This document shows, one piece after another, positions 13,920-16,715 of a DNA stretch of 16,822 nt. The DNA lies in IMG/VR virus record IMGVR_UViG_648276652_000015; one strand, given 5' to 3'. The translations under genes and the position numbers were made by a program. The DNA is from a virus. Lineage: Duplodnaviria; Heunggongvirae; Uroviricota; Caudoviricetes. Position 1 is the stretch's first letter, and every line of letters starts with the position of its first letter. The notes beneath the pieces were generated by a model, which was not told the origin of the DNA, made no database searches, and saw only the letters and a list, made by a program, of their open reading frames with translations.

Positions 13920-16715
13920 ATGGCAGTACGGATTTCAGGTGTACTGAAAGATGGCGCAGGTAAGCCGATACAAAACTGCACCATTCAGCTAAAGGCCAGG
14001 CGCAACAGCACCACGGTGGTGGTGAACACAGTGGCCTCAGAAAACCCGGATGAAGCCGGGCGTTACACAATGGACGTCGAGTATGGTCAGTACAGCGTCA
14101 GTCTGTTGGTGGAGGGATTCCCGCCGTCACACGCCGGGATTATCACCGTATATGAGGACTCAAAGCCGGGCACACTGAATGATTTCCTCGGTGCAATGAC
14201 GGAGGATGATGTCCGGCCAGAGGCACTGCGCCGTTTTGAACTGATGGTGGAAGAGGTGGCGCGTAACGCGTCCGCAGTGGCACAGAACACGGCAGCCGCG
14301 AAGAAGTCAGCCGGCGATGCCGGCACATCTGCCCGTGAGGCGGCAACCCATGCGACTGATGCTGCAGGCTCAGCACGCGCAGCCAGCACGTCAGCCGGAC
14401 AGGCCGCTTCGTCGGCTCAGTCAGCGTCTTCCAGCGCAGGAACGGCATCAGCAAAGGCCACTGAAGCATCAAAAAGTGCTGCCGCTGCAGAGTCCTCAAA
14501 AAGCGCGGCGGCCACCAGTGCCGCTGCGGCAAAAACGTCAGAAACGAATGCGGCAGCGTCACAACAATCAGCAGCCACTTCAGCATCCACCGCGACCACG
14601 AAAGCGTCAGAAGCTGCCACCTCAGCCCGGGATGCGGCGGCCTCAAAAGAGGCAGCGAAATCATCAGAAACGAACGCATCATCAAGCGCCAGTAGTGCCG
14701 CTTCCTCGGCAACGGCGGCAGGCAATTCCGCGAAGGCGGCAAAGACGTCTGAGACAAACGCCAGGTCTTCTGAAACGGCAGCGGGACAGAGTGCCTCAGC
14801 TGCGGCAGGCTCAAAAACAGCGGCTGCGTCGTCTGCCAGTGCCGCGTCAACAAGTGCCGGGCAGGCCTCAGCCAGTGCCACCGCCGCCGGAAAATCGGCA
14901 GAAAGTGCTGCATCGTCCGCTTCAACAGCCACAACGAAGGCTGGCGAAGCCGCTGTACAGGCCAGCGCAGCAGCGAGGTCTGCTTCCGCAGCGAAGACAT
15001 CCGAGACGAACGCGAAAGCGTCGGAAACCAGCGCAGAATCCTCAAAAACGGCTGCCGCATCGTCCGCCAGTTCGGCGGCGTCATCGGCATCATCTGCGTC
15101 TGCTTCAAAAGATGAGGCGACCAGACAAGCGTCCGCAGCGAAGGGCAGCGCCACGACGGCATCCACGAAGGCGACAGAGGCAGCTGGCAGTGCGACGGCG
15201 GCAGCTCAGAGCAAAAGTACGGCGGAATCCGCGGCAACGCGCGCTGAGACAGCGGCAAAACGGGCAGAGGATATTGCATCCGCCGTGGCGCTTGAGGATG
15301 CGAGCACGACGAAAAAGGGGATAGTACAGCTCAGCAGTGCGACCAATAGCACTTCCGAGTCACTGGCGGCAACGCCAAAAGCCGTTAAGGCCGCGTATGA
15401 CCTGGCTAACGGGAAATACACCGCACAGGATGCAACGACAGCACAGAAAGGGATAATCCAGCTAAGCAGCGCGACCAACAGCACGTCTGAAACGCTGGCG
15501 GCAACGCCAAAGGCAGTAAAATCAGCCTATGACAATGCAGAGAAACGTCTGCAGAAAGACCAGAACGGCGCTGATATACCCGATAAGGGACGCTTCCTGA
15601 ACAACATTAACGCGGTCAGTAAAACAGACTTTGCTGATAAGCGTGGTATGCGTTATGTGCGGGTTAACGCTCCTGCAGGTGCAACATCTGGAAAATATTA
15701 CCCTGTTGTTGTTATGCGTTCTGCTGGCTCAGTAAGCGAACTGGCATCAAGGGTCATTATCACCACGGCAACGCGAACCGCAGGCGATCCGATGAATAAC
15801 TGCGAGTTTAACGGATTTGTTATGCCTGGTGGCTGGACTGACAGGGGGCGTTATGCTTATGGAATGTTCTGGCAATATCAAAACAATGAACGAGCCATCC
15901 ACTCAATAATGATGAGTAATAAGGGCGATGATTTGCGCTCTGTGTTCTATGTTGATGGCGCTGCTTTCCCTGTTTTTGCGTTTATCGAAGATGGCCTGTC
16001 AATATCCGCACCTGGTGCTGATCTCGTTGTTAATGATACGACCTATAAGTTTGGGGCAACAAATCCAGCGACTGAATGTATCGCGGCGGACGTTATCCTT
16101 GATTTTAAGAGTGGGCGTGGTTTTTATGAGTCTCATTCGTTAATCGTTAACGATAACTTGTCGTGCAAAAAACTTTTTGCCACAGACGAAATTGTAGCGC
16201 GTGGTGGTAATCAGATTCGAATGATAGGTGGGGAGTATGGGGCATTATGGCGTAATGATGGCGCTAAAACTTACCTGCTGCTTACCAATCAAGGTGATGT
16301 TTATGGTGGATGGAATACATTAAGACCGTTTGCTATTGATAACGCAACCGGCGAACTGGTTATTGGAACCAAGCTGTCTGCAAGTCTGAACGGTAACGCA
16401 TTGACAGCAACAAAGCTGCAAACGCCAAGACTGGTTTCTGGGGTTGAGTTTGATGGTTCAAAAGATATTACTTTAACCGCCGCGCATGTGGCTGCTTTTG
16501 CCAGAAGGGCAACGGATACATATGCCGATGCGGATGGTGGCGTTCCCTGGAATGCCGAATCAGGCGCTTACTGTCAACGCCAAGATTATTGGCCGTTTTT
16601 CGCCATTTTTAATGTCCGCTATTGGTCATTAATGTTGTCCGCTTTCCGCCATTTCATCATCACTGATTGGCGTGGCGTTTTTTGCCAGCACTCCCGCTTT
16701 GCGTTTTTCCTTTAA
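13920..16715 (+). CDS. stf: Side tail fibre protein Stf, 3' end interrupted by an IS21-family element (ORF tail from about 16572 is IS-derived read-through)
   Basis: N-terminus [38 protein letters not shown]... matches lambda Stf as recalled, followed by an Ala/Ser-rich repeat region and [15 protein letters not shown] modules. The last about 48 codons ([18 protein letters not shown]...) are antisense to the IS end and istB 3' end, so the native C-terminus and downstream tfa are missing from this window. Confidence 0.8.
14265..15300 (+). repeat. Ala/Ser/Thr-rich low-complexity coding repeats within stf (recurrent AAKTSETNA-type units)
   Basis: AAKTSETNA / AAKSSETNA-type units occur at least four times. 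GC-rich GCN/TCN codon runs create long shadow ORFs in other frames and on the - strand. Confidence 0.6.
15315..15533 (+). repeat. Tandemly duplicated 29-codon tail-fibre module ([29 protein letters not shown] / [29 protein letters not shown])
   Basis: Two copies at 15315-15401 and 15447-15533 with high protein identity and clear nucleotide similarity. I recall lambda Stf carrying a single copy of this motif. Confidence 0.65.

Follow-up and report, generated by a model that had tools for sequence, protein, structure and literature searches.

In phage lambda, the side tail fibre gene stf lies downstream of J and lom, and its product combines a PF08400 N-terminus and an Ala/Ser-rich shaft with a collar and a His-rich needle tip; the tail fibre assembly gene, tfa, follows. 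In lambda PaPa, a stf frameshift abolishes the side fibres. The Ur-lambda side tail fibre (STF) has been reported to bind OmpC and to improve delivery, and a working lambda–P2 STF chimera has been engineered by fusion at R393 (PMC11338833). In phage T4, the P3 and P4 domains of gp34 are β-prism bulges on a triple β-helix of the proximal half-fibre, far from the receptor (PMC5537660). Here we analyse the stf gene of a 16,822-nucleotide (nt) stretch of viral DNA (IMG/VR record IMGVR_UViG_648276652_000015; hereafter, the window), in which positions 15540–16571 had been flagged in an original prediction as an exchanged, receptor-binding C-terminal domain of Stf. Our comparison indicates that this stf is very probably a mosaic of a lambda-type N-terminus and a low-GC cassette, that the flagged part would be an internal structural module, and that the real tip would have been lost to an insertion sequence (IS). 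The parts of the open reading frame (ORF), with amino acid (aa) positions and, where relevant, the GC content at third codon positions (GC3), are as follows.

13920–16715, plus strand: stf ORF with a PF08400 N-terminus, 931 aa
13920–14321, plus strand: Stf N-terminal attachment domain, aa 1–134; PF08400 phage_tail_N, full-length, E 1.1e-71; GC3 0.634
14322–15299, plus strand: Ala/Ser/Thr-rich shaft, aa 135–460; 38% Ala, 24% Ser, 12% Thr; aligns to lambda orf-401
15295–15533, plus strand: two diverged Phage_fiber_2 units ending ATPKAVK, the mosaic junction; PF03406, E 1.8e-37, two stretches
15540–16571, plus strand: low-GC module, predicted to be internal, aa 541–884, with four sub-parts; GC 0.469, GC3 0.404; no significant lambda stf match
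15645–16139, plus strand: domain A, aa 576–740, an uncharacterised all-β globular mid-fibre domain
16167–16385, plus strand: domain B, aa 750–822, a β-helix/β-prism shaft segment; PF21446 Gp34_trimer; gp34 1036–1106; Mu S 268–336
16386–16499, plus strand: one fibre repeat, GNAxTATKLQTxRxxSGVxFDGS, aa 823–860, read from the sequence
16500–16571, plus strand: first 24 residues of a Mu S′-like domain, cut by the IS; intact allele against 8JU3 322–415, E 2.4e-22
16572–16715, plus strand: 47 read-through codons and a stop, the stf ORF extended into the IS end
16572–16822, minus strand: end of an IS21-like element (ISEc62 family), starting TGTCAACGCC; 98.8% identity to annotated IS21-like elements

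The tip of this fibre type is found in two intact alleles, one from Escherichia coli 504838 (L001, 2513–5911; 1132 aa) and one from phage 2H10 (LR595862.1; L002, 4513–7866; 1117 aa). After the motif NAESGAY (residue 840 in the intact allele and 884 in the window), both alleles run for 292 more residues, which start with NVTRSGDSYILVNFYTGVGSCRTLQMKAHYRNGGLFYRSSRDGYGFEEDWAEVYTSKNLPPESYPVG (NVTRSGDSY), pass through APIPWPSD and HxH repeats to the terminal NIAFNYIVRLA, and include a Collar domain (PF07484). Residues 902–1132 of the intact allele match the needle tip of T4 gp37 (PDB 2XGF, E 2.7e-84), the His-rich tip shares 71% identity with the C-terminal part of lambda orf-314, and a Caudo_TAP tail fibre assembly gene (tfa) lies directly downstream of the intact stf. 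Judged by these homologies, the fibre type carries an ordinary lambda/T4-type tip, and the flagged module does not take the place of the lambda tip. In phage 2H10, an ‘invertase’ gene (L002, 8539–9129) is located just downstream of tfa; fibre-tip inversion systems include Gin of Mu and Cin of P1.

The window lacks the C-terminal collar, the His-rich needle tip and the tfa gene that follows them in lambda-type loci, and the tip is missing only because stf is interrupted by an IS21-like element. The stf frame has no stop codon at 16571 and continues to 16715. A three-way alignment revealed that the window follows the intact E. coli allele through 16571 (GCTTAC) and is then unrelated to it; its sequence from 16572 onward, beginning TGTCAACGCCAAGATTATTGGCC, equals the end of an IS21-like element. 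On the minus strand, 16632–16820 contain the 3′ end of istB and encode the C-terminus of IstB (PF01695 IstB_IS21, E 8.4e-15), and a 263-nt stretch around the junction shares 98.8% identity with an istB gene that is annotated beside an ‘IS21-like element ISEc62 family transposase’ (istA). As in the IS21 family, the IstB gene adjoins the end of the element, and a defined terminus abuts unrelated target DNA. Because stf homology stops at 16571 and the IS begins at 16572, the 931-aa ORF consists of 884 Stf residues and 47 IS-encoded residues. The stf gene of the window is most likely dead, an IS-truncated pseudogene, and, by analogy with the side-fibre loss of lambda PaPa, the truncated fusion protein most likely cannot assemble a working fibre. 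IS disruption of a prophage gene is ordinary, and lambda PaPa likewise has a disrupted stf, although by a frameshift rather than by an IS21-like insertion.

Upstream of the cassette, the fibre is of the lambda type: the intact allele has an N-terminus that matches that of the lambda tail fibre in PDB 9e7m, and aa 1–499 of the window protein align with lambda orf-401 at 83% identity over the first 326 aa and 62% over the rest. The Phage_fiber_2 units that follow form a direct repeat (15295–15401 and 15427–15533; 76% identity, 132-nt spacing); Tandem Repeats Finder reported no array in stf, the units being too diverged, and they were detected by a direct-repeat search instead. The window has two such units, compared with one each in the intact E. 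coli and 2H10 alleles. Nucleotides 1–1482 of the window stf are 94% identical to the E. coli allele, and nucleotides 1508–2652 are 98.9% identical, with a 132-nt offset. Divergence between the window Stf and lambda Stf begins directly after ATPKAVK (lambda K385), where lambda continues with VVMDETNRK and the window with a different sequence for each unit. The position of the extra unit, right at the mosaic junction, suggests that recombination inside the repeat was unequal or illegitimate, and the conserved Phage_fiber_2 repeat behaves as a recombination joint, at which a compositionally foreign, horizontally exchanged cassette appears to have been attached to a lambda-type N-terminal shaft. 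The natural junction at lambda K385 lies eight residues before the fusion point of the engineered R393 chimera, and the ATPKAVK junction, so close to R393, marks a tolerated module boundary.

The flagged module is common to many fibres of this type. Over all 344 residues it is 100% identical to the tail fibre of phage 2H10, its DNA is 99.8% identical in many E. coli prophages, and at least 1256 of 5426 complete E. coli genomes carry it, annotated as tail fibre protein. The linker at aa 543–556, of the RLxKDxNGADIP type, also occurs in Mu S at 150–172, and the fibre repeat unit (GNAxTATKLQTxRxIxGVxFDGS) is present three times in the relative P0094. Partial relatives in a protein collection join the module to various C-terminal Pfam families, namely PF07484 with PF03335 (Collar with HxH repeats), PF12604 (gp37_C), PF12571 and PF13884 (Peptidase_S74), and bear diverged domain A alleles that are 46–67% identical; both the varied C-termini and the diverged alleles fit a transferable mid-fibre cassette. 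AlphaFold2 (AF2) produced a poor model of the whole 344-residue region (predicted local distance difference test (pLDDT) 51.7), a result to be expected when one chain of a trimeric fibre is modelled alone; this model was not used. On the basis of its homologies, we predict that the flagged module is an internal shaft/knob, rather than the Stf C-terminal domain, a tip or a receptor-binding module.

The domain B region (aa 707–806) scores 96–100.6 bits with PF21446 Gp34_trimer, against a gathering cut-off of 27, and phmmer matches in the PDB comprise Mu S 268–336 (5YVQ, E 2.6e-14) and T4 gp34 1036–1106 (window aa 750–821, E ~1e-11). In the gp34 crystal structure, triple β-helices span residues 1014–1047 and 1105–1128 (PMC5537660). 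The matched gp34 segment 1036–1106 thus covers, in that layout, the end of the 1014–1047 helix segment, the 1047–1105 stretch, the presumed place of the P4 β-prism domain, and the beginning of the helix segment that follows.

Domain A has no Pfam family match even at E ≤ 1, and it matches positions 550–773 of the 1376 in phrog_454, as well as phrog_6578 and phrog_745. Its tblastn matches are in the fibres of T5-like phages, Vibrio phage phi 3 and rV5-like phages, and the match in slur09 is situated mid-protein, at about 608–771 of the 1272-aa L-shaped fibre protein. Modelled alone by AF2, domain A gives a confident all-β structure (pLDDT 81.7, predicted TM-score (pTM) 0.80). A Foldseek search of this model against the PDB gave no significant match, and the BFVD matches with a query-normalised TM-score of at least 0.65 are all tail fibre proteins (JenK1, phi 3, Aeromonas phage gp37 and navn). 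Its conserved positions are mostly Gly, Pro and aromatic residues, and a search for homologues with the slur09 segment as seed deepened the alignment little, since it yielded just five short proteins. Domain A is an uncharacterised all-β domain that this fibre shares with those of T5-like, rV5-like and Aeromonas T4-like phages.

A comparison with described fibres places these parts in context. Between ATPKAVK and APIPWPSD, lambda Stf has a shorter, unrelated linker (VVMDETNRK ... GAGENSAFPAG), whereas the window-type fibre has an unrelated cassette of about 390 residues with a lower GC3; on either side of it, the J–lom–stf locus, PF08400 N-terminus and Ala/Ser-rich shaft and, in the intact alleles, the collar, needle tip and tfa are as in lambda. 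The 2H10 fibre and E. coli prophage fibres such as WP_099481771.1 have the same gene order and share the flagged residues, but they are intact and have one Phage_fiber_2 unit, whereas the window copy has two and is cut by the IS. The similarity to T4 gp34 (PDB 4UXE, 5NXF and 5NXH) is that of a shaft element and extends over only about 70–100 residues; nothing in the present fibre corresponds to the remainder of gp34, P5 and the presumed gp35/gp36 contact region among it. Mu S/S′ (5YVQ and 8JU3) has the same order of Phage_fiber_2 repeat, RLxKDxNGADIP linker, gp34-like domain and 8JU3 322–415 domain, but in the present fibre domain A separates the linker from the gp34-like domain, and the distal tip is of the gp37/lambda type. 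Domain A and the start of domain B match the middle of the T5-like L-shaped fibre pb1 (slur09 YP_009202114.1; phrog_454), with 36% identity to slur09, whereas the N-terminal attachment, C-terminal receptor-binding and chaperone parts of that fibre are entirely different. The arrangement represents the classical tail-fibre mosaicism among lambda, T4, Mu/P1/P2 and T5-type fibres, and is in this sense already known.

The base composition of stf changes at the same junction. The GC content is 0.469 in 15540–16571, compared with 0.624 in the Ala/Ser/Thr-rich shaft and 0.562 in the whole window, and GC3 is 0.404, compared with 0.63–0.67 in the stf N-terminus, J and H. Two-segment maximum-likelihood change-points fall at nt 15509 for GC and nt 15618 for GC3, that is, at and just after the second Phage_fiber_2 unit. 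The original prediction that the DNA becomes AT-richer after the duplicated units is therefore borne out, and composition across stf is not uniform; its description of the upstream sequence as strongly GC-rich holds for total GC, although the excess is mostly at the second codon position (GC2 0.80) and stems from the GCN Ala codons and the Ser codons of a shaft with 38% Ala and 24% Ser. That the drop is a mere by-product of amino-acid content, with no bearing on origin, is an explanation favoured by just this GC2 excess and by a shaft GC3 of only 0.515. The flagged GC3, however, is lower than that of every other 344-codon window of the phage ORFs (n = 4567; minimum 0.523, mean 0.631, s.d. 0.050), and nucleotide identity to relatives also shifts at the junction, so we regard this explanation as barely credible. 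The amino-acid artefact was rejected as the cause of the GC drop on the GC3 analysis, and the shift goes beyond amino-acid content. In the intact E. coli allele, low GC3 (0.34–0.44) extends across the whole distal cassette, the tip and tfa, and lambda has a milder form of the same trend (GC3 0.483 in orf-314 and 0.456 in tfa). Such a low GC3 would mean that the distal cassette came from phages richer in AT.

Two further explanations concern what the cassette does. The original prediction held that 15540–16571 is the C-terminal domain of Stf and a receptor-binding module exchanged for the lambda tip. Its observation that the encoded residues do not match the lambda Stf distal region was confirmed, as an all-frame tblastn of the 344 residues against lambda stf DNA (lambda 19650–22000) returned nothing significant (best E 0.33), and horizontal exchange of a foreign cassette onto a lambda-type shaft likewise fits our results; moreover, the region is the last stf-derived sequence in the window. 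The receptor-binding part did not hold up, and a C-terminal position is contradicted by the open frame at 16571, the IS sequence in which the ORF ends, and the intact alleles with their 292 further residues, gp37/lambda-type needle tip and tfa. The recognisable parts of the module match gp34 and Mu S shaft elements, the flagged region has no match at E ≤ 1 to 2XGF, the gp37/lambda-type receptor-binding tip, and partial relatives join the same module to different C-terminal families, all of which make an exchanged tip very improbable. Domain A (aa 576–740) might nevertheless be a second, lateral binding site, either a glycan/lipopolysaccharide adhesin or a fibre-docking site, contributing to host range beside the needle tip. 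Its confident globular all-β model, its diverged alleles in otherwise similar fibres and its recurrence in the fibres of unrelated phage groups would agree with such a role, whereas its conserved Gly, Pro and aromatic positions are those expected of a structural core, it has no Pfam or functional annotation, and its mid-fibre place is typical of structural bulges such as P3–P5 of gp34. A lateral site is, in our view, unlikely. Several points weigh against the mosaic with an internal module and a lost tip that we prefer. We infer a purely structural domain A from its mid-fibre position, in the face of its lack of a Pfam family or a convincing match to a solved structure, and we also infer the loss of function of the truncated protein. 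No public sequence with the exact stf/IS junction was found: the 36-nt junction had no exact match in a scan of genome contigs, the 931-aa fused ORF had no exact-protein match, and no complete E. coli genome searched covered the junction. The window ends inside the IS, and both a simple insertion and an IS-associated deletion or rearrangement fit; the other IS end is outside the window, and the 3′ part of stf and tfa may or may not persist in the source genome.

By homology to lambda, T4 and Mu, a working model of the intact fibre can be proposed. A lambda-type attachment domain and Ala/Ser-rich shaft (aa 1–~500) are joined at the Phage_fiber_2 repeat to a distal cassette of lower GC. Positions 15540–16571 encode its first 344 residues, with domain A, domain B, one fibre repeat and the start of the Mu S′-like domain. 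In the intact phage, the trimeric fibre would attach through its PF08400 N-terminus and extend through the Ala/Ser-rich shaft and the fibre repeats, with the domain A, domain B and Mu S′-like knobs as structural bulges, and the host would be bound by the collar/needle tip, folded with the help of the Tfa chaperone. In the window copy, the IS21-like element (ISEc62 family) interrupts stf after codon 884 and separates the tip from the gene; if otherwise intact, such a phage would rely on J alone.

The gene order around stf is that of a lambda-like block, in which L and I, also recognised by their Pfam domains on the plus strand, likewise lie upstream of stf.

345–1397, plus strand: major capsid protein E (Pfam)
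3159–3929, plus strand: tail tube protein with a Big_2 domain (Pfam)
4776–7337, plus strand: tape measure protein (Pfam)
9709–13188, plus strand: J, 1159 aa (Pfam)
13256–13855, plus strand: Lom (Pfam)

The window contains the head-to-tail morphogenesis genes of a lambdoid phage or prophage, and stf, located downstream of J and lom in the tail gene block, has the context of a lambda-type Stf. The whole window is about 96% identical to the lambdoid phages mEp332, Chlobot, ev099, PhiR34_1, Kati and 2H10, thousands of E. coli genomes have prophages that match it at this level, and all such matches end at 16570–16576. Most close relatives, phages and prophages alike, align only from window position 249 onward, and a further putative mosaic boundary therefore lies just upstream of the major capsid gene. 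J is 1159 aa here, compared with 1132 aa for the lambda coding sequence (CDS) 15505–18903, and its C-terminal receptor-binding domain (PF12421) is present. Between the tail tube and tape measure genes, two overlapping ORFs (3945–4367 and 4349–4783) occupy the position of lambda G and the frameshift product G-T. Long ORFs of 378, 335 and 249 aa overlap the Ala/Ser-rich part of stf, including 14143–15279 on the minus strand and 14317–15324 in another frame of the plus strand; lambda has a comparable annotated antisense ORF, orf206b. These alternative-frame and antisense ORFs most likely reflect nothing more than the GCN-rich, repetitive nature of the coding sequence.

For annotation, the last 47 codons of the 931-codon ‘stf’ ORF are IS sequence, and the ORF should not be annotated as a complete fibre. 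What appeared to be a new tip is a mid-fibre cassette, and host-range predictions made from this cassette would be wrong. Beyond annotation, the importance of the locus is slight, and domain A, being widespread and without a Pfam family or a solved structure, is a modest target for structural work. There is an outside chance that domain A combines a structurally undescribed fold with a lateral, secondary host-binding or fibre-docking site in lambdoid, T5-like, rV5-like and Aeromonas T4-like fibres; if so, mid-fibre cassettes, and not only tips, would contribute to host range.

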